Shown here: positions 130-50,960 of the stretch, in pieces | Position numbering within the stretch: position 1 is the stretch's first letter | Layout: the number at the start of each line of letters is the position of its first letter | Source: Akkermansia sp. | GTDB taxonomy: Bacteria > Verrucomicrobiota > Verrucomicrobiia > Verrucomicrobiales > Akkermansiaceae | Reading direction: 5' to 3' | DNA: 64,000 nt | Assembly: GCA_022787425.1 (NCBI GenBank) | Contig: JALFWB010000006.1 | Span: 23,528 to 87,527, forward strand | Made by a program: the position numbers and the translations under genes | Notes under the pieces: generated by a model | Told to the model about the DNA's origin: nothing | The model's input: only the letters and a program-made list of their open reading frames with translations | The model's database searches: none

Positions 130-889
130 CATCATTCCCCGGCTTAGGGGCTTGCCAAGAGCCCTGCAGGAGTTGCCGCAGCAGGTTGCGGACGGTGAAG
201 GGGGGCTTGATGCTTTCGCCCGGCTCGGCGACCGGCTGAGCTGTTCTCTCGGCGCACTTTGCTGCTCTTACGGGAGACTTTGCAAGACCGGAGGGCCCCA
301 TAACGGCGGGCTCGGCGGTATTCGATTTCCGGCAAACGGCCACACCGTGAACAGCAGGCTCAGACGCCCAGTGCCGCGCTATCCCTGCCGCCTCTGCTGC
401 CGGGGTGGCCACCAACCTTGCGACCGCGACTTGCGGCACAGCAGGCCGGACGATGGGTTCGGGTTCTGCTGTGTTTTGAACAATAACTGCTTCGTCACAC
501 TCCGCCTCGTAAGCCGCCTCTTTGGCGGTTTCTGAGACCGCAACAGGTTGCACGGCCGGACCGGTCTGAACCGCCTGCGACGACCCCCCCTCCACTTGTG
601 CAAGGGAGGGCAGGGGAGAAGGCAGGGAGGTGCTATCGTCCTCCCATACGGCGTACATGGTTCCACCCACGCAGACCATCAGGATGGCGGCTGCCTTCAG
701 CCACCGGCGGGTGTAGACCGAGGACACCCCCGCAGCTGCAGCGGCATCCAAGCTGTGCTTCAGCCTGTCGGTTGCCTCGTCAGTCATGCGTATCTCGGCA
801 TGGTCGCGGGCTGCCAGTTCGCGTAACTCCTTTTCCGTTTGCAGCAAATCGGCCTCAAGAGCCTCGAGCTCCTCGTCCTCTGTCTTCAT
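119..889 (-). CDS. putative anti-sigma factor (single-pass membrane protein)
   Basis: ORF 119-1021 trimmed to ATG 889, which overlaps the upstream sigma-factor stop as ATGA (886-889, checked in sequence). Acidic coiled N-terminus, one TM helix WLKAAAILMVCVGGTMYAVW, and a Pro/Ala/Val-rich C-terminal part. No zinc-finger anti-sigma motif, so the call rests mainly on position. Confidence 0.55.
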   Translation of the reverse strand: MKTEDEELEALEADLLQTEKELRELAARDHAEIRMTDEATDRLKHSLDAAAAAGVSSVYTRRWLKAAAILMVCVGGTMYAVWEDDSTSLPSPLPSLAQVEGGSSQAVQTGPAVQPVAVSETAKEAAYEAECDEAVIVQNTAEPEPIVRPAVPQVAVARLVATPAAEAAGIARHWASEPAVHGVAVCRKSNTAEPAVMGPSGLAKSPVRAAKCAERTAQPVAEPGESIKPPFTVRNLLRQLLQGSWQAPKPGNDANR

Positions 890-1437
890 AACTCTGTCTT
901 CACGGTCAGTGGGTTCATCATACGTTTTACCGCGAGCAAGGCGGCCCGGTAACGACTGCGCACCGTCGACTCCGGCTGGGAGAGACTGCGCGCGATGGAA
1001 GCGAAGGTTTGCTCCTCCCATATACGCAGCAGCAGAACCTCCGCTTGCTCCGGTGGCAATGCTTTCACTGCCCGGCGCAGGTGGTAGTGGCGGTCATCTT
1101 CATCCGCCTCGCTGTTCTGCGATGAGAGAACTGTTTCGTTGTAATACATTCGTTCTGCTTTTGCCTGGCGCCGGGAATGCTGCAGAGCATGCACGGCCTC
1201 CCGACACAGAGCCCGCATGGTGTAGGGCAGCAAATCCTCCTCCCGTGCCGGCACTCGTTCCTCCGCCACCGCTCGCACCACCTTGGTTGCGACACGGCTC
1301 AGGAGAAGCTCCTCATCCACCTCGTTACCCACGCGGCGGCGCACACAGGCCAGCAGACGATGGCGCGCTGCAAGAAACCATTCCTTGCACTTCTCCACGC
1401 CTTCCCGGCTCGATGCCTTCACTGAAAGAAAACTCAC
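886..1437 (-). CDS. ECF-type sigma-70 family RNA polymerase sigma factor
   Basis: 183-aa ORF with a GTG start at 1437 (alternative GTG at 1422). The C-terminal HTH LPPEQAEVLLLRIWEEQTFASIARSLSQPESTVRSRYRAALLAVK is typical of ECF region 4, and the size is typical. Confidence 0.85.
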   Translation of the reverse strand: MSFLSVKASSREGVEKCKEWFLAARHRLLACVRRRVGNEVDEELLLSRVATKVVRAVAEERVPAREEDLLPYTMRALCREAVHALQHSRRQAKAERMYYNETVLSSQNSEADEDDRHYHLRRAVKALPPEQAEVLLLRIWEEQTFASIARSLSQPESTVRSRYRAALLAVKRMMNPLTVKTEL

Positions 1438-9371: not shown

Positions 9372-10141
9372 TCGTTCTCTTCTAAGGCCTTACAAATGGG
9401 TAGAAGGCCGTTCCAAGCCGTCACCGCACCGCTGATGCCGTCCGGCGCGCTCGGAGTGTACAGGAAGCGACCGCCGGCGGACTCCAAGATGAGACGAGCC
9501 GCCGCAAAATCCCACAAATTGATGCGGTTCTCCACATAGGCATCCATGCGACCTGCCGCGATATAGCAAAGCGAGAGTGCTGCCGAGCCGAGGATGCGGA
9601 TCTTGCGCACACGGCGGGAAATGCGCGCGAACCTGCGTATCCCGGCCTCGCCGGATCCGTCATGCGTGCCGTGCCCGATGAAGACCACGGCCTGTGACAA
9701 GTCGGCCCGCTCAGAGACCCGGATGGGGCTGCCGTTCAATGTTGCGGCTTGCCCCGCAAGGGCGCAGAAGCACTCGCGCTGCATGGGGTCATACACGCAG
9801 CCCAGAAGCGGTTTGCCATCTTCGTACAGGGCAATACTGACGCAGAATATCGGTAGGCCGTAGAAATAGTTGACCGTGCCATCCAGCGGGTCGATGATCC
9901 ACACCCGTCCGCCGGACCGGATATCCCCCACTGTTCCTTCCTCTCCCAACACGGAGTCGTGCGGAAAATGCCGGAGCAGGTGGCGGACGATGAGGCTCTG
10001 CGTCTCCCGATCCAACTGCAGTTTGATGTCGTGCGCCGACTCTGCTTCAATCTGCTTGAGCGATGCGAAACGCGCCGCAAGAAATACACCTGCCTCTTGG
10101 GCAGCTTCTCTTGCTATCCGGAGTTGGTCGAACGTGTTCAT
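9368..10141 (-). CDS. inositol monophosphatase family protein
   Basis: 257 aa. GEEG and WIIDPLDGTVNY motifs of the IMPase/SuhB family. ATGA overlap with the upstream PBP-like gene. Confidence 0.85.
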   Translation of the reverse strand: MNTFDQLRIAREAAQEAGVFLAARFASLKQIEAESAHDIKLQLDRETQSLIVRHLLRHFPHDSVLGEEGTVGDIRSGGRVWIIDPLDGTVNYFYGLPIFCVSIALYEDGKPLLGCVYDPMQRECFCALAGQAATLNGSPIRVSERADLSQAVVFIGHGTHDGSGEAGIRRFARISRRVRKIRILGSAALSLCYIAAGRMDAYVENRINLWDFAAARLILESAGGRFLYTPSAPDGISGAVTAWNGLLPICKALEEND

Positions 10142-25061: not shown

Positions 25062-26222
25062 ATGACGACACCTCAGCGCACCAAACGGATTGGTAGCATC
25101 GACGGCCTCAAGGGGCTGGCCGCTGTCTTTATTCTTGTGTTTCACTACCTGCTCGCCTTTGCACCGTACGGCCACATAGGCTTCGGCAGCGGGGTAGCAA
25201 AGCAAAATGCGGAAGCGGTGTACATGGCTTCCTTCCCCTACTCCATTTTGGTCAGCACGCCTTTTGCTCTCTATATTTTCTTCGCGCTCATCGCCTTCAT
25301 CCCCGCTCTGCGCTACATGAAGACGGGGGATGCCGGCTTCCTGTATAAACAAGCGACCGTTCGCTATGTACGCCTCATGCCGCCCACGTTGGTGGCCGCT
25401 CTGTTGGGCTACATCGGTTATGCCTGCTTCGCCGGTCAGCACACAGCCTTGGTGGAGGCCATGCGCCCCTTGACCGGAGGTGGCTGGTTAAATGCCTTGG
25501 TGTATTCGGACCTCAGCCTCGGGGATGCCCTGCAGGCCGGACTCTGGAAGTCCCTCTGCCTAGGAGATGCTCGCTATAACAGCCCGCTGTGGTGCATGAG
25601 CATCGTCCTCTTCGGTTCCTATGCGGTCTATGCCGTGTTGCTGACCTTCGGCAAACTGCAACGCCGTTGGATCATCTACCTCATCCTCGCCTTCGTCTGC
25701 GTTGCTGCGGGGGCTTCTCGCTACCTCTCCTTCTTGGCCGGTATTGCGGCGGCGGACTTCTCCCGCCAAGCGGAGCCCGGTAAGCACAGCGAGGCCTGTG
25801 CCCTGGCCTGCGTTGCCTTGGCCATCCTGATAGCCATCTTCCCGGCAGTCCTCCTCCCCTCCTTCCTGGATGCGTACACCATGCAGGGCATCGCCTGTTT
25901 CTTCTTCCTCTTCGGCATGGTACGCTCCGCCATTCTGGAGAAGATGCTGGGCCGTTCCCGCACGCTCAAGCACCTCGGCAAACTCTCCTTCGGCATCCTG
26001 CTGGTGCAATTCCCCGTCCTGCTCTACTTCTCCGCCTGGGTTTACACCTCCCTCGTCGGCTGCGACTGGAGCTACCCCGGTGCCGCTACCGTCTCCTTCC
26101 TCATCTCACTTCCCCTCGTCTACGTCCTCAGCCTCGCCTTCTACTATGCCGTAGAAGTCCCCTGCGGCAAACTCTGCAACCTCATCTACGCCCCCTTCGC
26201 TCCGGCAAAACAGCCCAGCTGA
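25062..26222 (+). CDS. acyltransferase family 3 (OafA/NolL-like) membrane protein
   Basis: MTTPQRTKRIGSIDGLKGLAAVFILVFHY N-terminus typical of acyltransferase_3, about 10 TM. ATG 25062 lies 7 nt after TAGAAT of a TTGTCT-17-TAGAAT promoter. The 95-codon upstream extension in the track is rejected. Confidence 0.85.
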   Translation: MTTPQRTKRIGSIDGLKGLAAVFILVFHYLLAFAPYGHIGFGSGVAKQNAEAVYMASFPYSILVSTPFALYIFFALIAFIPALRYMKTGDAGFLYKQATVRYVRLMPPTLVAALLGYIGYACFAGQHTALVEAMRPLTGGGWLNALVYSDLSLGDALQAGLWKSLCLGDARYNSPLWCMSIVLFGSYAVYAVLLTFGKLQRRWIIYLILAFVCVAAGASRYLSFLAGIAAADFSRQAEPGKHSEACALACVALAILIAIFPAVLLPSFLDAYTMQGIACFFFLFGMVRSAILEKMLGRSRTLKHLGKLSFGILLVQFPVLLYFSAWVYTSLVGCDWSYPGAATVSFLISLPLVYVLSLAFYYAVEVPCGKLCNLIYAPFAPAKQPS

Positions 26223-26252
26223 TTTCCCCGCCGGACTTATCCTAAACCCAAA

Positions 26253-26290
26253 ATAAGCCCTTCGCGCTCATCCCCGAAGGGCTTATTTTA
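26253..26290 (+). terminator. rho-independent terminator after acyltransferase 1 (usable in both directions)
   Basis: Perfect 12-bp stem ATAAGCCCTTCG (26253-26264) / CGAAGGGCTTAT (26275-26286), 10-nt loop, then TTTTA. An A-run on the left gives a T-rich tail on the other strand. Confidence 0.8.
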
Positions 26291-26305
26291 TCCCATCTGT
26301 TTTGA

Positions 26306-26473
26306 CTACAACATGCGCAATGCTGTAGTCAAGTGCAATTTCGTTTTCCTTTGTATCAACAAAGGATTTTTATTCTTGATACTCTTCTGAAATTCCCCGA
26401 CATGAAGAGTTATATTTCTCAAAGTCGTTGATTATCAACGTTCATAATAGGGGGTGCATTGCGCATGCTGTAT
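26306..26473. promoter_or_regulatory. candidate invertible promoter cassette (inverton) upstream of acyltransferase 2
   Basis: 18-nt inverted repeats at 26306-26323 and 26456-26473 (16/18 complementary) flank a 132-bp AT-rich segment. That segment carries TTGATA-18-TATAAC on the minus strand (-35 at 26438-26433, -10 at 26414-26409). Confidence 0.45.
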
Positions 26474-27565
26474 GCTTTGCGCATGGCAGGTGAATGCAGA
26501 GTAGGGGGCTTCAGCCGTCAGGGAACAGCGATGATCAAGGGTGTGGCAATTCTGACGATGCTCTTTCACCATTTCTTCGGTGCGTATCATGTGGATTCCG
26601 GTATTACGCAGGCGGTGTTTGCGAATCTGGATTTCTGTGCTTTGTCTGCCTGGGCATGGGAGGCTAAGGTTTGCGTGGCTCTTTTCGCATTTGTGACAGG
26701 GTATGGTTATTATGTGACGGCGGGAAGGGATACAGGGTGTGCATGGGGATCCGGTTTTCGTCGTCTGCGCAGATTCTATCCTCTTTTCATCGCTTTCTGT
26801 TTATTACATATTTTGCTTTGCTATTGTTGCCCCTTTCAGGATGCCTTGAATGACCAGCAAGTTCCGCATTATCTGCTGACAATGGTCGGTTTGCTGTCTG
26901 CCGCTCCGGATTACTGGTACATATGTGTGGTCATACTGGGTGCCCTATTATTTTACCCTGTTCTGTTGGCGGCACGGAGATGCTGCGGGTCTATCTATCT
27001 TGTTGCCTTTATCGGGCTCTCTTTGTTGAGCATTACGTGGATCAGAGACGAGGTGTTCGTACTGATACTGAGTTGTTTTACCGCACAAGCTGAGGAGGTT
27101 TACCGCTATGTCCTTTCGCGTTCTCTTTACCTCGTTTCATTGCCTTGGATGATTTATTTTCTGGTTGGTTGGGCTGTGGCTGCGGTGAGTCTTCGTCTGT
27201 GTGTTACATCCGTTCTTCTCCTGACGGTGTCTAGTGCCGTTCTCCTTGTCAATGTGCCTCAATTTCCGTTTTGGGTGGGTAGTTTTCCCTGCATCCTCCT
27301 GACTGTGTGGGTGTTGCAGCGGGTGGATGGTCATTGGGTGGGGTGGCTGGTGTTATTGGGAAAATACTCAGCGTGCATGTGGCTGAACCATCGGTTGATA
27401 TTCGGGTATTGGTTTGCGGATTTCTTTTACGGCTTGCCCACACCGCTGAATTATCTTTTGTTGGTCGGGGTTTCTTTGGGCGTTTCCGTGGTCGTTATGT
27501 GGGTGTGGGAGGAATGGGTGATGGGTGGACGAAAAAAGCGGCGGCATGATGATGCCGCCGCGTAA
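26465..27565 (+). CDS. acyltransferase family 3 membrane protein (lower-GC copy)
   Basis: AMIKGVAILTMLFHHFFG motif and a polytopic profile. Start ambiguous (TTG 26459, ATG 26465, ATG 26483 or ATG 26531). G+C is visibly lower than in the flanks. Confidence 0.75.
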   Translation: MLYALRMAGECRVGGFSRQGTAMIKGVAILTMLFHHFFGAYHVDSGITQAVFANLDFCALSAWAWEAKVCVALFAFVTGYGYYVTAGRDTGCAWGSGFRRLRRFYPLFIAFCLLHILLCYCCPFQDALNDQQVPHYLLTMVGLLSAAPDYWYICVVILGALLFYPVLLAARRCCGSIYLVAFIGLSLLSITWIRDEVFVLILSCFTAQAEEVYRYVLSRSLYLVSLPWMIYFLVGWAVAAVSLRLCVTSVLLLTVSSAVLLVNVPQFPFWVGSFPCILLTVWVLQRVDGHWVGWLVLLGKYSACMWLNHRLIFGYWFADFFYGLPTPLNYLLLVGVSLGVSVVVMWVWEEWVMGGRKKRRHDDAAA

Positions 27566-43678: not shown

Positions 43679-43788
43679 GCTTGTTCCATTCCCCGAGCGG
43701 GCAGCCTCTGTTGCAGTGGAGCACCCCCCCGGACTCGGAACCAATAAGACTTCCTGCCGCCGTGGTGATAGGGGGCGTCTTTTGGGGT

Positions 43789-43981
43789 GACGCGGAATTT
43801 TCGGAATTTTTGGAAGCTTAAATTTCATGCTCTTCTTTGGCAAGACTTCAAAGTAAATTCATCCCATAGGTAGCTATAGAAATTTATCAAAAAATCAAGG
43901 AAACTACCATCCCGGCGGCATGCAGCTTGTACCGAGTCAAGCATTCCAATCAGTTTCCGGGAATTCCAAAAATTCCGCGTC
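43789..43981. repeat. imperfect 27-nt inverted repeats enclosing a 139-bp AT-rich segment (MITE-like, structured RNA or degenerate inverton)
   Basis: GACGCGGAATTTTCGGAATTTTTGGAA (43789-43815) versus the reverse complement of 43955-43981, GACGCGGAATTTTTGGAATTCCCGGAA: 23/27 identical. Confidence 0.6.
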
Positions 43982-44020
43982 CTCCCCAACACACCCTCTC
44001 TATTACCCAGGCGGCAGGAC

Positions 44021-44084: not shown

Positions 44085-47000
44085 TCAGAAGTTGACGCGG
44101 TAGCCAACGGAGCCGTTCACGCCCACCTCGTCGGCATTGAAGTCGGCGTTCACATCGAAGAAGATGGAGCCTGCATCCTGCGAGATCGGGATGGTGAGGG
44201 TGGCTCCGAGTTCTGCGCCGATGACGCCCTTCTCGTTGCTGCGGGTGGTGACCGTGGCGGTCGGCAGGACGGCAAGGGCGGTGTTCAGCTTGTTGTAGCG
44301 GTCGCCGAAGTCCAGTTTGAGCAGGGCGCGGGCCTCGAAGATGGAGGCGCGGTTGTACTCGTTCTCACCCACGACGCTCTGCAGTCGACCACCGAGGCCG
44401 AGGGAGAATTGGGTGAGGGATGCCGAGTCCGTGGTCAGGCGGGTGTCCGCCGTGCCGCCTTCCGTTGCGCTGTCCAGCGTGGTGTGGCTGAAGCTCATGT
44501 TGAACAAGGGCTGCACACAGGTGGTCGCCTCATCGTTCAGGGCGAAGGTGCGGGCGACCTCATACAGGAAGCCGAACATCATGCCGTTCGTCTTGTAGGT
44601 CGTTTTACCCGTGACACCGGGGATGGTGCGCTCCAGGTCGACATCCGCGCGGCCGAGGGTTCCCACGAAGGTATTGACCCAAGAACCGGTCGAGACGCGG
44701 GCGAAGAGAGAGACGTACTGGGTGTCCAGGTCGCCTGTCAGGGTGTCCGCAGCCTTGCCGGTGTAGTCACCGAAGAGGGCACTGACGGCCACGCCGAGGG
44801 TGAGGTTCGGGTTCACGTCGACATCAACGCCGACCGTGCCGCCCCAGGAGGAGACTTGGTAACCGGCATCCGTGCCGCTCTCGCTGAGCTGGCGGTAGTT
44901 GCCGTCACCGCTGATCCAGCCGTTGACGTAGGGCATGTCCTCGTTCACCACGCACTCATTCACGCCCATGGTGGTCGTGCGGTTGCGGATGGAGCGGAGT
45001 TGACGCTGCACATCGTCAGCCAAGGCCAGCCCCACAGCGGACAGCGAGCTACCCGCCAGCGCCGCACCCAGCTTGTCCATCGCGTCCTTGTTACCGGTAG
45101 CAATGTGGTTATCCAGCATAGTGAGTACCTGAGCCAGCTCGCCGTTGGGTGCCGTTGACCGCGGGTCAAGGTGGAACATCGCCTTACCCGCCAGCGCGAG
45201 ACCCGCCGTGCCGTTCGGCGTCTGACCACCATGCGAGACGTAGTATCCCGTGTTGGCGTCAGCGATGATATCAACGGAGCCCTCCACCGCGCGGAAGTTG
45301 GTGAAGTACTTGGTCATCCAAGTGCATTCGCTCATGTCCACCGTCACGTTGCTCACCGAGCAGCCGTCCCGATCGTTCAGCACAAAGAGCAGGATGTCCT
45401 TCTCCTTGCCGCCCGCATTGAAGTCCAGCCCCGTGTTCTCCACCTCATGCACCTTCAACGTCACGTCCTTCAGGCTCAGGGATGAACCCGTGGTAACAGT
45501 CGGTTTATCATCGTTAGCCTTCAGCTTCTCATTTACCTCCGTGGCGGAAACGATGAAGTCCAGAACGCCATCCTTCATGGTGGAAGCATTGCCCAGCGTC
45601 ACCGTGGTCGCCTTACCATCATCTGTTGTCTTGTTGTTCAGCTTCACCGATGCCCCCGTGGTAGCAATGCCATCGAGCTTGTTGGAATCAGCATAGGCAC
45701 TGTTCAAACCAGTCAACTCCACTGTGCCGAGTGTGCCGACCACCGTCAGCTTCTCATCCGCCGCCAACTCCTGGACAGCACCATCTCTCACAGTGCCAAT
45801 GGAGGTCGCGCTGTTGTAGTTCCCGGTGAAAGTGCCGCTCTCACGTACCAACAACGTACCTTGCACACCCTTTGAGGCAACATTTTTGTCCAGCTTTTCC
45901 AGCTCAATGGTGCCTGTATTCTTGGCAATAATGTCAGCACTGATCTCGCCCGAAACCACCAGCTTGCCATCGCCGCCGACTATACCATCGCCGGAGATAG
46001 ATCCCACTTTCACGGTCGAGCCGCTGCCGATGGTCAGGGTGCCATTGTTGGTCATCTTCTCACTTTCCAAGGAGCCACCTTCTCCTTCTACTGTCAGAGA
46101 GGTGCCGGTGTGGATGGAAGTAAGCTCATTCACCGTCAGATTGTTTTGCACAATCAATTTGCCGTGGGCAATACTGAGCGTCCCCGTTGTCACGTCTTTT
46201 CCGCTGAGGGTGTAGGCATCCCGATCTGCACCCGGGGTGAAGTCTACCGCAATTCCCTTCACGGTTTGATCACTATTCACGATCACCTTACTTGAACCGT
46301 CACCGGCAAAAGAGACATAGCTATCCTTCGTCAGCTGAGCATCTGCGTTTGCGCCGAAGCCAGTCGATGATGTCCATCCATTTGTCTCGTCACCATGCCA
46401 CGTCAACCCAAGCGTCACTTTAGAAAGAGTGACCGAGGTGTCGTTCATTGCAATATAGTAACGCACTTCCGTACCATCTGCAGCGTTCTGCGTAAAGGAT
46501 TCCTTTTCATTTACGGTTGCCTTGTCATACCCCACGATGCCGCCCTCTGCATTCAGCAGTTTGAATTCCGCCCCATCCGGGAGGTCCTGCAGGAAATCGA
46601 GGTTCCCCGATGAGGTCGTAAAATTCAGGGTTCCGCTACCGCTTGCTTCACCCCCAACAGTAATAGCCGTCTTAGTGGCATCCAAAGCTGCGCCATCCAA
46701 CGTGATTGTCGAAGCTCCTGTCAGATCGCCCGTCAAGCTCATGGTCTCGCCCAAGGTCAGCGCGCCCAAAAGCTTCATGGATCCTCCGTTGACCGAGGCA
46801 TTCAACTTCGCACCGTCTGCCAAGGTCAGCAACGAGGTCGACTCACTCGCCGTGTAGCTGCCCGTCCAGTCTTTAATGTCTCCGCCGAGGGAAACATTCC
46901 CCTTGGAATTATTGACGATCGAACCGGTTCCGGACAGCTTACCATTGAGAGCAAGAGTACCGGCGGTTTCCGGCCCGTCAGTGAGCGTCAGCGCAGCAAC

Positions 47001-50000
47001 GTCAGGAGTGCTTTCGTCCGTAGATTGTATGTCCACCAAGACCAAATCAGCAGTCACTTTCGGGCTTGTGCCGTCCGCTCCATCGTATGCGTAGCCGCTC
47101 AAACCGGAGATCTTGATGGTGCTGGTCTGCTGAGTCGTACCGTCCACCGTTCCGGTAGATGCCAGATGATTCAGCTCCGTGATGGAGAACCAGTCGTCAC
47201 CATTCCCTCCCAACTTGGTGTTCGTAACCTCCACCGTACCCGTCCAACCGGGATCGCTGGGGGTAGTATCCGTACCCGCTGTCGGATTGACAACCTGTGT
47301 TGCGCCGGCTTCCAGCCCCATCGCATTGTCCATGACATAGGTTCCCTTGCCGGTCAACTTCAGAGTTGGAGTGAAGTCTCTGGTGGAACCATCCGTTCCT
47401 TCGACTTCCTTCTGCAGGATGGTAGCCTTATTCAGTCGGATTTCCGTTCCATCCGGGTTCGTACCATCGAACTTGATGGTAGCGTCGTTCAATACAATGA
47501 TGCCACTCGTCGCATTCTCATTCAGATTGTTCTTCATCACCAGCGTCAGAGGCTCTGTCTCTAAAGCCGCTTTATCAAGAACAAGCCCGGTTGTGGCGGT
47601 ATTTGCAGCGGAATTTGCCCTTGAACCGCTCTGATACACAACGCAATCCTTCTTATTATCATTATCGGAGTCGGTCTCATTGTACATGATGTAGAAGAGA
47701 TCCTTCTGAGCGTCCGTTCCTGTAATCTTAACGTTGGAGCCATCCGAGGCGATGAAGGAACCCGATTCGGTAGCAGTGCTGGTGAAGGTCTGATTTCCGA
47801 CAGTTACACTGGTAATACCACTTGCAGAAGCCCCGGCACTTCCGGCAACGATAAGGAACGAGCCGTCAACATATCCATTGCCGCTGTCCGGACGTTGAGC
47901 ATCCACATAATCAATATCCTTCTCTGTCAATACATCCTTTGAGGTGAAACTCAGGGAGCCACCGGTGGCGAGAGTAAACGTCCCGGCGTTCTCGATGGTT
48001 GCCCCGAGTGTCACATCGCCGGTTACTGTAAGATTGGCTCCTGTAAGGACGGAGAGTTTACCCTCTCCCACAACAGACTTCCCTATATGATCCCCCGTGG
48101 TGGCATCGCCCAGAGTCTTGGTGCCTGCTATCTCAAGCGTTGTATCTTTCGCCAGAGAAATAGCACCTGTACCGAGTATTGCCTCGTCCTTTAATTGTAC
48201 CGTGCCTCCGGTCACAGTAAGGTCTTTCGTCCAAGTCGAAGTCGTGTTCGTGAAGATCACCCTGCCTTCGCCGGCTTTCACGATATTATTGGTACCATGC
48301 CGGTTATCTACGATCTTCGATGAAACCAACAATTCACCGTCCTTCTCCACAGTCAGATTTAAAACCTCTCTTGCCTGAAGTTCTTCGGCACTAATCTTGT
48401 TATTGGTTCCGGAGACGTTGACAGTTGCACCGAAGGGCATAATTTTAGTTCCGGTCAAGACACTGTTACCGCCCATGTCGACGGACGTGCACCAAGTGAA
48501 GGGATTGCTCCCATCCGTATCATTGAAATCCAATGTCGCAACTTTATCAGTACTCTCGCCGCCCAGAATGATCTTGTTCGGACTCTTGGCGCTCGACCAT
48601 GCGAGCATATCGTGTCCCGTCAGTCTCAGGGTTCCGCCTGTAACCTTAACCTCAGACCCGACACTGATGCAACTTTGGTCACTCAAGGCACCGCAATTGA
48701 TCTCGAGAGTGCCCCCGGAGACAAGCAAGCCTGTTCCGGAGAATGTATTGGCCGCGCCGATAAGCTTAACTGTACCGGCTTCTACGATTAATTTGCCACC
48801 TTGCACCGTGGGCTGACCGTTTGAGTTCTGCAGTATCAGATTGCCACCATCCAGCGTGAATTGATTCTCTATCACCAGGGGGGAGCAGAAGGTCAGTGTG
48901 CCATCTATTGTCAGTGCTGCCGTTGAGCCGGAGGCCTGAAGAGAACCGACAAGTAATTGTCCCGCACCTTCCTTAATCGTCGCGCCCCCACCGATGGACA
49001 GCGAGTGCGCATTGACGACATGGGCGTTGAGATCTAGGGTGCCACCATTCAGAGAGAGAGCAGCAACACTCACATCTTCCTGCGCCGTCACAGTACCGCC
49101 GGTAATTGTAACAGAATCGCCATCTCGGTATGAAGTGGCGACACCATTAACATCTTTGAATAATGTATTAGTCTCTGTGCCGTTGTTTTTCCAAGCAACA
49201 TCGGAGTCTGTGAACAACTCCATGGTAGCGTAGCCCTGCTTCTTGTAGTTAACCAAGACGGAGGTGCCTCCGTCCGAAAGCGTAGCATCCGCAAGGATAT
49301 GACCATCCTGGTCGAAAATGATGCAATCCGAAGAAGCGGTGGAGTAAACATTGCCCCCCTCAGCCATGGTGAGAATTGTCCGCGATACGTTCACTTCACC
49401 ATACGTTCCTCTGTTGGACAGACCGCTGATCTCCTCATCCTTTGTGTTGACAACGATTTCTAAATGGAAGGTTCCTCCATTATTCTTGAGCCTGAAATTC
49501 TTTACGGTGCTGCCCAGATTGATTAGACCGTTCTCCCCGATATGCCAATTTTGGAAAGTATTGCCATCGTTAAGGTCAATGGTATCTCCTCTGCCGACAA
49601 AATTCAGCAGGCCGTCCACATACACGTTTGCAGTGTTGTTTGACTCCGTGTTCTTCAAACTGGTGCCATAACTAACATTCAGGATGGACCCGGTCCCGAC
49701 ATGAATTGCCCCGGCCCACTCACTGAGGTCGCAGGAAACTGCGCTGTGTCCCGTCACCTTAATACCTCCGTAGTCAGAGGTGTTTTTAGTGTTCTTGGCC
49801 GAAACAACACCGACTGAGTCAAAGACGAGCAGGGGGCCTCCTTTTCCTCCACGGTCGGGATTTGCGTCTTCGCCTGCTGCATTCTTAAATCCACCACTGG
49901 CCGTTGAGTAGGTATACACAGGGCCTCCGAACATGGGTTGATTCAGCCATGGGTCATAGCCAATGGTTTGCATGAAATCGAGACTTGTCCACGAAGCGGC

Positions 50001-50588
50001 GTCTGCCCCGATCCTTGCACCCCCGATCAGGGTTGCGTGATTTTTGTTGCCATTAGTCCAATACCAAGAAGTTTCCGAGGACAATGCTAGATTGCTAATC
50101 CCGGTGTCGACGACAGAAGTGCGATAGGAAGAGGATGATGTTAGATCGAGGAGGTATACCTGATGGTTGACCGCATCGTATGCCAAGCGGTAGGTGTTAC
50201 CCACAACAACCGGAATGGCTGCGCTCTTTGCCGTGCCTCCTTCCGCGATGCATATGGTCTTGTTTCCATTGTTGATGTAAGCAGAAAGTCCGATGGCGGT
50301 GCTTTCGTCATGACTCCCCGAGTAGCTAGCTCCGTTATTGGCGATAGCATTGAATTTCAAATCCAGATACCAGCTCTGGGCGGATGTTGTGTTACCTGCA
50401 AAAGCATTGAATGTGATGCGGGTGTTGGTTTGCGTGACATCAGAGCTGGTAACACTGGTATTGCTTCCTGTACCGAAAACAAGCCCCGATATAGCTTCTG
50501 TCGTCAGCGTCTCTGCATAGGTGGGAGACGCAGCCAGTATGCATGCGAGAAGGGCGGTGCGAAGGCCCTTAGGTAAGTGTAATTTCAT
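44085..50588 (-). CDS. giant autotransporter (type Va) outer-membrane protein with beta-helical passenger
   Basis: Signal peptide MKLHLPKGLRTALLACILAASPTYA. About 1850 aa of G/T/N/S-rich beta-strand repeats (GGTL.L.G, autotransporter-associated repeat style). C-terminal about 280 aa has alternating beta-barrel pattern ending ...GSVGYRVNF with terminal Phe. Confidence 0.9.
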   Translation of the reverse strand: MKLHLPKGLRTALLACILAASPTYAETLTTEAISGLVFGTGSNTSVTSSDVTQTNTRITFNAFAGNTTSAQSWYLDLKFNAIANNGASYSGSHDESTAIGLSAYINNGNKTICIAEGGTAKSAAIPVVVGNTYRLAYDAVNHQVYLLDLTSSSSYRTSVVDTGISNLALSSETSWYWTNGNKNHATLIGGARIGADAASWTSLDFMQTIGYDPWLNQPMFGGPVYTYSTASGGFKNAAGEDANPDRGGKGGPLLVFDSVGVVSAKNTKNTSDYGGIKVTGHSAVSCDLSEWAGAIHVGTGSILNVSYGTSLKNTESNNTANVYVDGLLNFVGRGDTIDLNDGNTFQNWHIGENGLINLGSTVKNFRLKNNGGTFHLEIVVNTKDEEISGLSNRGTYGEVNVSRTILTMAEGGNVYSTASSDCIIFDQDGHILADATLSDGGTSVLVNYKKQGYATMELFTDSDVAWKNNGTETNTLFKDVNGVATSYRDGDSVTITGGTVTAQEDVSVAALSLNGGTLDLNAHVVNAHSLSIGGGATIKEGAGQLLVGSLQASGSTAALTIDGTLTFCSPLVIENQFTLDGGNLILQNSNGQPTVQGGKLIVEAGTVKLIGAANTFSGTGLLVSGGTLEINCGALSDQSCISVGSEVKVTGGTLRLTGHDMLAWSSAKSPNKIILGGESTDKVATLDFNDTDGSNPFTWCTSVDMGGNSVLTGTKIMPFGATVNVSGTNNKISAEELQAREVLNLTVEKDGELLVSSKIVDNRHGTNNIVKAGEGRVIFTNTTSTWTKDLTVTGGTVQLKDEAILGTGAISLAKDTTLEIAGTKTLGDATTGDHIGKSVVGEGKLSVLTGANLTVTGDVTLGATIENAGTFTLATGGSLSFTSKDVLTEKDIDYVDAQRPDSGNGYVDGSFLIVAGSAGASASGITSVTVGNQTFTSTATESGSFIASDGSNVKITGTDAQKDLFYIMYNETDSDNDNKKDCVVYQSGSRANSAANTATTGLVLDKAALETEPLTLVMKNNLNENATSGIIVLNDATIKFDGTNPDGTEIRLNKATILQKEVEGTDGSTRDFTPTLKLTGKGTYVMDNAMGLEAGATQVVNPTAGTDTTPSDPGWTGTVEVTNTKLGGNGDDWFSITELNHLASTGTVDGTTQQTSTIKISGLSGYAYDGADGTSPKVTADLVLVDIQSTDESTPDVAALTLTDGPETAGTLALNGKLSGTGSIVNNSKGNVSLGGDIKDWTGSYTASESTSLLTLADGAKLNASVNGGSMKLLGALTLGETMSLTGDLTGASTITLDGAALDATKTAITVGGEASGSGTLNFTTSSGNLDFLQDLPDGAEFKLLNAEGGIVGYDKATVNEKESFTQNAADGTEVRYYIAMNDTSVTLSKVTLGLTWHGDETNGWTSSTGFGANADAQLTKDSYVSFAGDGSSKVIVNSDQTVKGIAVDFTPGADRDAYTLSGKDVTTGTLSIAHGKLIVQNNLTVNELTSIHTGTSLTVEGEGGSLESEKMTNNGTLTIGSGSTVKVGSISGDGIVGGDGKLVVSGEISADIIAKNTGTIELEKLDKNVASKGVQGTLLVRESGTFTGNYNSATSIGTVRDGAVQELAADEKLTVVGTLGTVELTGLNSAYADSNKLDGIATTGASVKLNNKTTDDGKATTVTLGNASTMKDGVLDFIVSATEVNEKLKANDDKPTVTTGSSLSLKDVTLKVHEVENTGLDFNAGGKEKDILLFVLNDRDGCSVSNVTVDMSECTWMTKYFTNFRAVEGSVDIIADANTGYYVSHGGQTPNGTAGLALAGKAMFHLDPRSTAPNGELAQVLTMLDNHIATGNKDAMDKLGAALAGSSLSAVGLALADDVQRQLRSIRNRTTTMGVNECVVNEDMPYVNGWISGDGNYRQLSESGTDAGYQVSSWGGTVGVDVDVNPNLTLGVAVSALFGDYTGKAADTLTGDLDTQYVSLFARVSTGSWVNTFVGTLGRADVDLERTIPGVTGKTTYKTNGMMFGFLYEVARTFALNDEATTCVQPLFNMSFSHTTLDSATEGGTADTRLTTDSASLTQFSLGLGGRLQSVVGENEYNRASIFEARALLKLDFGDRYNKLNTALAVLPTATVTTRSNEKGVIGAELGATLTIPISQDAGSIFFDVNADFNADEVGVNGSVGYRVNF

Positions 50589-50717
50589 GTCCTTGATGTG
50601 AGAAAGTTTGGAGAGATTCGACGCAAGGGGTGTGGGACGCATCGCCACATCGGCTCTTTCTCTCTCTCTCACACCGAGGTGAGCGATACGCCTACATCCC
50701 CTGCGAACGCTCTAATG

Positions 50718-50887
50718 CTACATCATTTCCAAAGCACACCCTATGTCTCATGTTGATACTGAACGACTTATGCAGTATAAACGCTGTGAGCAGCCCCGCA
50801 CAAGCTATGTCCTTAATGTGGAAAATCTATGGCATTGATGGGAAAATTCCCATTTTTCTGCTTGACTCATCATTGGAAATGCTGTAG
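50718..50887. promoter_or_regulatory. candidate invertible promoter cassette (inverton) upstream of the autotransporter gene
   Basis: 15-nt inverted repeats at 50718-50732 and 50873-50887 (14/15 complementary) flank 140 bp. That segment carries TTGATA(50753-50758)-17-TATAAA(50776-50781) on the + strand, facing away from the autotransporter. Confidence 0.5.
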
Positions 50888-50901
50888 GCTTTTCACCGGG
50901 G

Positions 50902-50936
50902 AAAAAAGCCGCGCTCCCTCGGAAGGGGGCGCGGCT
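50902..50936 (-). terminator. rho-independent terminator of the acetyl-CoA synthetase gene
   Basis: Stem AGCCGCGC (50907-50914) / GCGCGGCT (50929-50936) with additional inner C:G pairs, followed on the minus strand by a T-run (complement of A 50902-50907). Confidence 0.7.
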
Positions 50937-50960
50937 GCAGAAATTGCGGGGCAGGGGTGC

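Follow-up and report, generated by a model that had tools for sequence, protein, structure and literature searches.

An invertible DNA segment upstream of an acyltransferase gene in Akkermansia belongs to a dispersed family and may carry a split promoter

We analysed a stretch of 64,000 nt from a contig of Akkermansia sp. (the window; all coordinates refer to it), whose encoded proteins fall into clusters in which the named members come from Akkermansia metagenome-assembled genomes (MAGs). Between two genes for membrane acyltransferases of the Acyl_transf_3 family lies a short AT-rich segment bounded by inverted repeats, which we call cassette 1. A repeat finder placed the arms at 26307-26323 and 26456-26472 (17 nt, one mismatch, 94% complementary, 132 nt apart), in agreement with the bracketed 132-bp segment that a first-pass annotation of this DNA had proposed as a candidate inverton. 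The GC content is ∼60% in the neighbourhood, 50% in the gene of the downstream acyltransferase 2 (10 points below its neighbours) and 34% in the interior of the cassette. The 64 kb contain two matches to the half-site pattern TACANCAT-N(140-165)-ATGNTGTA, one at cassette 1 and one at a second cassette upstream of a giant autotransporter gene (cassette 2), with 0.00 matches expected (100 shuffles); the repeat pair is thus not at chance frequency. The interior motif TTGATANNNAACGACTT was found in the window only at 26422-26438 (minus strand) and 50753-50769 (plus strand), against 0.11 expected. An Rfam search of 26150-26650 gave nothing near any gathering score.

The same locus was taken from other public assemblies by exact-protein look-ups, and window 26200-26600 served as the BLAST query against all loci. 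In L001, where the acyltransferase is 99% identical, the flanks including the repeats are collinear with the window and the intervening 132 bp are reverse-complemented. The corresponding plus/minus/plus pattern of high-scoring segment pairs, in which the minus pair (window 26307-26472) overlaps each flanking pair by the 17-nt arm, was obtained for L001, L004, L005, L006 and L007, partly for L008, and also for L098 and L101. In total, eight independent metagenome contigs carry the segment inverted, with flanks 92-99% identical to the window and breakpoints inside the repeats, and two carry it as in the window (L002, Logan SRR14369229; L082, pig gut, ERR1135416). L101 has the spacer allele of the window and an interior 98% identical to it, yet the opposite orientation. 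The contig names follow at least three schemes (k141_, scaffold_, Logan), as would be expected if different pipelines had assembled them. Cassette 1 is a site-specific invertible element that occurs in both orientations in natural populations, and we regard this as virtually certain.

Comparison of both orientations mapped the crossover in cassette 1 inside CATGCGCAATGC. In either state the flank retains the mismatched base n of TACAnCAT, which places the exchange within the shared core (CATGCKCAATGC in cassette 1, CATTTCCAA in cassette 2). This pattern is the product expected from conservative site-specific recombination. Cassette 2, which had been recognized as a twin at 50718-50887, is homologous to cassette 1 and gave the same result: the exact acetyl-CoA synthetase of the window was found in ten loci, the autotransporter only in L018 and L022, and both of these have the segment 50732-50873 in the orientation opposite to that of the window. 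Four Logan assemblies have contig ends at window ∼26512, which were considered as further marks of the inverton and rejected; the break lies 40 nt past the right repeat, and nearby strain single-nucleotide polymorphisms (SNPs) explain it better. Coordinates of the features are collected in Table 1.

Table 1. Features of the two cassettes and the genes that they precede.
Feature	Coordinates	Strand	Remarks
Terminator-like bidirectional hairpin	26250..26289		Ends acyltransferase 1 gene; A-run, 15-bp perfect stem, T-run
Left recombination site TACAACAT-GCGCA-ATGCTGTA	26307..26327	+	Two inverted 8-bp half-sites, 5-bp asymmetric spacer
Invertible segment of cassette 1	26324..26455		132 bp, 34% GC; predicted OFF orientation in window
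Putative mobile -35 box TTGACT	26327..26332	-	Segment end abutting left site; in window points left, away from gene
Terminator-like hairpin TCCTTTGTATCAACAAAGGA + T-run	26347..26376	+	Would meet incoming transcription only in window (OFF) orientation
First-pass -10 candidate TATAAC	26409..26414	-	Not conserved across family
Conserved motif TTGATAATCAACGACTT, part of palindrome CGTTGATAATCAACG	26422..26438	-	Includes IHF-consensus-like AATCAACGACTTT
Right recombination site GGGTGCAT-TGCGC-ATGCTGTA	26452..26472	+	Weak inner, strong outer half-site
Putative fixed -10 box TATGCT	26471..26476	+	Outside segment, overlapping end of outer half-site
Acyltransferase 2 (Acyl_transf_3, PF01757)	26531..27565	+	Probable true coding sequence, 344 aa
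Autotransporter	44085..50588	-	2167 aa; MKLHLPKGLRTALL signal peptide, C-terminal PF03797 beta-domain; true start 50588
Cassette 2 gene-proximal site and putative fixed -10	50715..50739	-	Minus-strand reading ...GTGTGCTT-TGGAA-ATGATGTA-GCAT; -10 TAGCAT at 50715-50720
Invertible segment of cassette 2	50732..50873		Predicted OFF in window; TTGATACTGAACGACTT at 50753-50769 (+)
Cassette 2 gene-distal recombination site CTCATCAT-TGGAA-ATGCTGTA	50866..50886	+	Site pattern and repeat finder

Further members of the same family lie at other loci. L072, a MAG with the window's exact acs protein, has two (L072a, L072b); a second acyltransferase, next to a GtrA-like gene, follows one of them and a 188-aa gene the other. 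Others precede a signal-peptide protein in L075 (alpine marmot gut), an autotransporter 66% identical in L079, a 992-aa gene in L080 and an acyltransferase 45% identical in L081. The best-preserved sites have the form TACAGCAT-N5-ATGCTGTA, in which a 5-bp spacer separates two 8-bp inverted half-sites (TACAnCAT / ATGnTGTA), 21 bp in all; the left site of cassette 1 fits this site pattern at 14/14 positions. The paired spacers of one inverton are reverse-complementary (TTGCA/TGCAA, TGCTA/TAGCA, TTTGA/TCAAA, GCGCA/TGCGC, TTCCA/TGGAA) in five of seven members as scored and in six of seven after correction of the L072a anchor, and in four contigs the same spacer variant is present on both arms (GCTCA / TGAGC). 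Because the spacer is asymmetric, it sets the inverted orientation of the two sites. In the L079 inverton (9720-9890), the spacers differ by two mismatches (TCCCA vs TTCGA), and this inverton may be locked ON. The centre-to-centre distances between sites (145, 147, 155, 145, 156, 146 and 146 bp) form two classes one helical turn apart (14 or 15 turns; ∼146 or 156 bp). The site definition also accounts for a 9-bp hairpin that had been described with the left repeat in its loop: a hairpin is present (13 nt, 26302-26314 / 26320-26332, by the repeat finder), simply because the left site is a complete palindromic recombination site of two half-sites.

A TTGAC(T/C) box abuts the site in all eight members and, when on the gene side, lies 17-18 nt from a gene-proximal hexamer. 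This hexamer is TATGCT in cassette 1, TAGCAT in cassette 2 and TATGCT, TAGACT, TATTCT, TAGTAT, TATCCT and TATTCT in the others. The form TAnnnT is found at 8/8 gene-proximal positions compared with 2/6 on the distal flank (Fisher p = 0.015). A consensus promoter scan of ON contigs returned TTGACT-18-TATGCT (L004) and TTGACT-17-TAGCAT (L018) as sole results, both on the gene strand, and found no promoter in cassette 2 of the window (OFF state). L080 (9800-9900) also contains an autotransporter homologue (P0074) that has no inverton; it has a fixed TTGACT-17-TATTTT with a decayed site as spacer, and its 5' untranslated region (UTR) is homologous to those of cassette 2 and L079.

From these sequence features we lean towards a split promoter, in which the -35 box is mobile, the -10 box is fixed and the recombination site is the spacer. 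In one orientation, a complete sigma-70-type promoter would arise with the site itself as its 17-18-nt spacer, and transcription of the acyltransferase would follow (ON). In the orientation of the window, the -35 box would have moved 145 bp off to face the upstream terminator, and the -10 box would be left without a -35 (OFF). ATAGGG occupies the -35 position before the -10 box in the window state, and the hairpin with T-run at 26347-26376, which sits on the opposite strand in the ON contig L004, faces read-through from the upstream gene. Cassette 2 would switch the giant autotransporter on and off in parallel; in the window its TTGACT box (50862-50867, plus strand) faces away from the gene, and its segment includes a terminator-like hairpin at 50837-50854 (plus strand). 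Both cassettes would be OFF in the window, with the same polarity under the split promoter and under the promoter proposed in the first pass, and we consider an OFF state of the window quite probable. The earlier description of a promoter element that points away from the gene is borne out; which element it is, we read differently.

The cluster of TTGATA motifs noted previously is indeed present as a conserved block but more probably serves to bind a protein, its distance from the recombination sites being fixed. This TTGATA/AACGACTT block is part of the near-palindrome GTTGATAnTCAAC, which is followed by GAsTT; the conserved form is GTTGATAnTCAACGAsTT. It lies 101-104 nt from the TTGAC box in seven of the eight members, across intervening sequence that is not conserved, and 26-27 or 35-36 nt from the other site. 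The fixed distance, together with the 14-/15-turn site spacing, gives it the look of an architectural element that aids synapsis of close sites. Compared with the Escherichia coli consensus WATCAANNNNTTR for integration host factor (IHF), the block matches at 9/9 specified positions in L072a, L072b and L081 and at 7-8/9 in the others. We tentatively suggest an accessory site for a DNA-bending protein. An IHF-like bend at the block would help sites ∼146 or 156 bp apart to come together in synapsis, in the way that IHF and Lrp assist fimS.

A Pfam scan of the ∼45 open reading frames (ORFs) of the window revealed no integrase, resolvase or transposase, as the first-pass annotation had stated for recombinase genes. 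The gene calls of the retrieved loci contain no integrase or resolvase domain, and there was no PF00589 match in the window or in neighbouring gene calls. With no recombinase nearby, the enzyme presumably acts in trans; an invertase encoded elsewhere would act on all members of the family. Sites of tyrosine recombinases consist of two inverted half-sites around a 6-8-bp overlap that matches between partners. The 21-bp site with its odd spacer, the identity of the arms over an 11-12-bp core and the spacer variants, most of them paired, suit a tyrosine recombinase (∼7-bp overlap) better than a serine invertase, and from this geometry the trans-acting invertase may well be an enzyme of that class.

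The first-pass annotation had taken a different view of the promoter and placed a complete one, TTGATA-18-TATAAC, wholly within the segment as the only good promoter, on the minus strand (TTGATA-17-TATAAA in cassette 2); after inversion it would read through ∼100 nt of the segment into the gene. Both hexamer pairs are properly spaced in both window cassettes, the TTGATA block is kept in most family members and the ON/OFF polarity would be that of the split promoter. However, the -10 box is TACAAC (a SNP) in most cassette 1 contigs and has no counterpart in L072a, L072b, L079, the L080 inverton or L081. The L081 motif is GTTCAGTATCAACGAGTT, which leaves the relevant strand without TTGATA. In the ON state of cassette 2 a terminator-like hairpin would stand between this promoter and the gene, the inverton-less homologue of L080 keeps only the TTGACT/TATTTT promoter, and the consensus scan rejects TTGATA-18-TATAAC since the last -10 base is not T. 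We thus think it unlikely that this is the operative promoter. The scan reported instead, as its sole match in cassette 1 of the window, a weak plus-strand CTGAAA-18-TATATT (26387-26416) aimed at the gene, so the minus-strand candidate is not the only one. Were the plus-strand match functional, the polarity would be reversed, with the window orientation ON and the commoner orientation OFF. This is very unlikely: the -35 box CTGAAA is weak, the -10 box is polymorphic (TGTATT in L082 and in the TACAAC alleles) and neither has a counterpart in cassette 2. Moreover, the hairpin with T-run at 26347-26376 faces the gene side in that orientation, and the conserved TTGACT/TAnnnT pairing would be left unexplained.

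Several points weigh against our own interpretation. The -10 boxes of the split promoter match the consensus at only 4/6 positions and partly overlap the conserved half-site (TA of ...TGTA), so that part of their conservation is not independent. TTGATA-N17/18-TATAA(C/A), as present in both window cassettes, is a plausible promoter too and has the same direction. The family sample is small (eight members, both window cassettes included), and the arms do not always co-vary, L082 being mixed (GCTCA left, TGCGC right). The IHF reading is a match to the E. coli consensus only. The comparison of orientations was made between assembled consensus contigs, one orientation per sample, and some members look decayed (L079 with its two spacer mismatches, L072a with a degenerate outer half-site). 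Such data would also be expected if the two orientations were a polymorphism fixed between strains, left behind by an ancient inversion or by a switch that was once active, with no recombination in present-day cells. We consider this highly improbable: two independent loci of one genome are precisely inverted and bounded by the same type of site, near-identical alleles exist in both states (window and L101, 98%, same spacer allele), orientation does not track the spacer-allele lineages, and related Akkermansia invertons switch experimentally (PMC13343947). The class of the recombinase, finally, is read from site geometry alone. A serine recombinase of the Hin/Gin/Mpi type could act in trans with the palindrome GTTGATAnTCAAC as recombinational enhancer. 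Mpi of Bacteroides is established to serve many dispersed promoter invertons of similar size, and a conserved palindrome does lie within the segment, with its distance from the sites fixed. Serine recombinases cleave at the two central bases of the site, whereas tyrosine recombinases require overlap homology. The 21-bp site (8-5-8) has an odd spacer and its dyad axis falls on a base pair, not between two central bases; the 11-12-bp identical core and the mostly paired spacer changes suit overlap homology of the tyrosine type, again as a matter of geometry only. A serine invertase is thus a rather doubtful alternative. All things considered, we judge the overall picture likely to be correct, that is, an inverton of a dispersed family with a split promoter, an accessory site and an invertase in trans, which would provide on/off variation of the cell surface.

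For acyltransferase 2, gene callers extend the coding sequence to ATG 26465, inside the right site, and this start had been adopted as the candidate ATG. The Pfam match starts at residue 26 of the long ORF, the gene call in one contig is 344 aa and most homologues have 336-358 aa. Together these data favour ATG 26531 (MIKGVAIL...), and ATG 26465 is probably not the start codon; since transcription is predicted to begin downstream of it, its annotation is probably an artefact. The ATG of the outer half-site ATGCTGTA is used by gene callers as an acyltransferase start both in the window (26465) and in L081 (146), and an open ORF behind such sites gains ∼22 spurious codons. From the protein family, it is plausible that the cassette 1 switch produces on/off O-acylation of a surface glycan. 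Identity between L082 and the window is 97-98% as far as codon ∼17 of acyltransferase 2, and it resumes at 27332. Between these points (window 26581-27331, L082 2617-3367), L082 has, in place of the ∼750-bp middle of the gene, a sequence so divergent that blastn does not align it, encoding a protein (P0003) 48% identical. The phase-variable acyltransferase thus exists as mosaic alleles behind the same switch. A gene for an ECF-type sigma factor (Sigma70_r4_2) is present at window 886-1437 (minus strand); we found no link between it and the invertons, though no search was aimed at one.

The autotransporter and its inverton (window 44085-50960 compared with L013-L022) constitute an indel; at that place, eight of the ten loci with an identical acetyl-CoA synthetase have a hydrolase gene (S6PP/Hydrolase_3 family matches) and a gene with an OmpA domain. 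The 5' UTR of the autotransporter contains a GA-rich tract at 50654-50671 (minus strand GAGAGAGAGAGAAAGAG), ∼65-85 nt before ATG 50588, and similar tracts are found in the homologous UTRs of L079 and L080; the tract may act as a translation signal or be prone to slippage. A second repeat-flanked element occupies 43752-44019, between an aroK-like gene and the stop codon of the autotransporter. Its arms of ∼67 nt (∼79% match; perfect core CGGAATTTTTGGAA / TTCCAAAAATTCCG) surround a 133-nt AT-rich segment. Homologues are present in L079, as two tandem copies directly after the homologous autotransporter, and in L080. This element could be a second inverton class or a miniature inverted-repeat transposable element; its GCGGAATT...AATTCCGC core bears a loose likeness to the published A. 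muciniphila repeat motif described below. Look-ups of P0068 and of the aroK-like protein returned no record.

Intergenic invertons abound in Akkermansia (PMC10028968). In A. muciniphila ATCC BAA-835, 32 invertons fall into one repeat group ('group 138') near autotransporter and PEP-CTERM genes (PMC11892184), and the cps1 capsule inverton of A. muciniphila has been validated experimentally (PMC13343947). The cassettes of the window resemble these elements in genus, in repeats of ∼17 nt around an intergenic segment of ∼130-160 bp, in the many copies per genome, in the position upstream of surface-protein genes that include autotransporters and in the lack of a linked invertase; the literature searched names no Akkermansia invertase. 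Primers inside the cps1 inverton end in ...TATTGACACCG(G) (PMC13343947 Table S3), from which it follows that TTGACA borders directly on the CGGATT repeat, as TTGACT does on ACAGCATT in the window family; judged from these primers, a TTGAC(A/T) box directly against the repeat is common to both. The repeat code is different. The A. muciniphila motif (Jiang et al. 2019, PhaseFinder) is quoted as CGGATT..AATCCG (PMC13343947), whereas the arms in the window are TACAACATGCGCAATGC and CTACATCATTTCCAA (TACAnCAT-N5-ATGnTGTA). CGGATT/AATCCG pairs fall only within ORF coordinates in the window and are at neither cassette, which places the window family outside that A. muciniphila repeat group. The target here is an Acyl_transf_3 gene, and the host is a different lineage of ∼60% GC represented by MAGs only.

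Other switches share individual features, although the literature searched contained no precedent for a split-promoter inverton. In fimS of E. coli (FimB/FimE tyrosine recombinases, IHF, Lrp), a short invertible promoter segment with inverted half-sites around a short core exerts on/off control of a surface structure, and a bending site inside the segment may be needed in both systems. However, fimS has a whole promoter in its 314-bp element and adjacent recombinase genes, whereas in the window cassette, of half the length and with no recombinase gene nearby, only the -35 box appears mobile. The capsule invertons of Bacteroides fragilis, another gut commensal, are likewise small, dispersed, united by a repeat code, flipped in trans and concerned with surface glycans and proteins; their invertase Mpi is a serine recombinase, though, the repeat and promoter consensus differ, and the promoters (-33/-7 type) lie wholly inside the segment. 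Hybrid promoters at insertion sequence ends also combine a -35 box at the end of a mobile segment with a flanking -10 box, the junction falling within the spacer, but they are made irreversibly by transposition; here, conservative site-specific inversion would form and dissolve the junction. Stochastic on/off modification of a surface glycan by an enzyme of an integral-membrane acyltransferase family, as predicted here, has parallels among phase-variable genes for O-acetylation or glucosylation of glycans, namely oafA of Haemophilus influenzae (slipped-strand repeats) and gtr of Salmonella (Dam/OxyR methylation), neither of which involves DNA inversion.

We also searched more widely for related sites. 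An exact scan of species-representative genomes for TTGATANNNAACGACTT-N(5-8)-TAYAA gave 49 loci, none from Akkermansia, compared with ∼35 expected by chance on a rough estimate; from this near-chance number we infer that the interior motif is too variable for exact scanning and that the representative genomes are without these exact cassettes. A metagenome scan for TTGACTACANCATNNNNNATGNTGTA gave six matches, one of them a true member (L075) and the rest in coding DNA of unrelated low-GC organisms. Scans of viral contigs for A. muciniphila-type and window-type sites gave chance matches, plus one possible single site. This site (L087 469-489, IMG/VR UViG_3300032167_006011) is complete, TACAGCAT-TGCGA-ATGCTGTA, and lies ∼90 nt upstream of a signal-peptide gene on a contig of 59% GC with a viral classification, and we saw no clear partner for it. 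Either a family member in decay or host DNA carried on a prophage contig could explain it. At least two copies of a conserved intergenic element of ∼100 nt are present in each of two MAGs of environmental Verrucomicrobiota, one from Limisphaerales and the other 'SPRUCE 17' (L023 347-375, L060 4786-4814, L055 1338-1366, L067 1294-1322). The element contains GGTTGATAGTCAACGACTTAAC amid five direct CCGCTACA repeats; its palindrome-plus-GACTT motif is that of the Akkermansia invertons, which also share its CTACA-type repeat. No integrase was found beside the related-looking repeat elements of the Limisphaerales MAGs.

Promoter invertons in Akkermansia were known; new is a lineage-specific sub-family with its own repeat code. 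A lineage of Akkermansia other than A. muciniphila runs its own inverton family over acyltransferases and giant autotransporters, and the exact definition of the 21-bp site can be searched genome-wide and narrows the search for the Akkermansia invertase. If confirmed, the split promoter would change how inverton promoters are predicted, since tools seek a whole promoter inside the segment, and synthetic switches would gain a useful minimal part. Akkermansia is among the candidates for next-generation probiotics. Variation of its surface influences association with mucus and colonisation (PMC13343947). A broader reading, which we rate at a little short of an even chance, extends the arrangement to A. 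muciniphila: the site would be the promoter spacer, the -35 box and the accessory site would be flipped against a fixed -10 box, the sites would stand 14 or 15 helical turns apart about an IHF-like bend, and an invertase in trans would unite the invertons into a regulon. Such a regulon would cover surface acyltransferases, autotransporters and secreted proteins, with TACAGCAT as repeat code in one lineage and CGGATT in the other, and the published A. muciniphila invertons, including the capsule switch, would work likewise.

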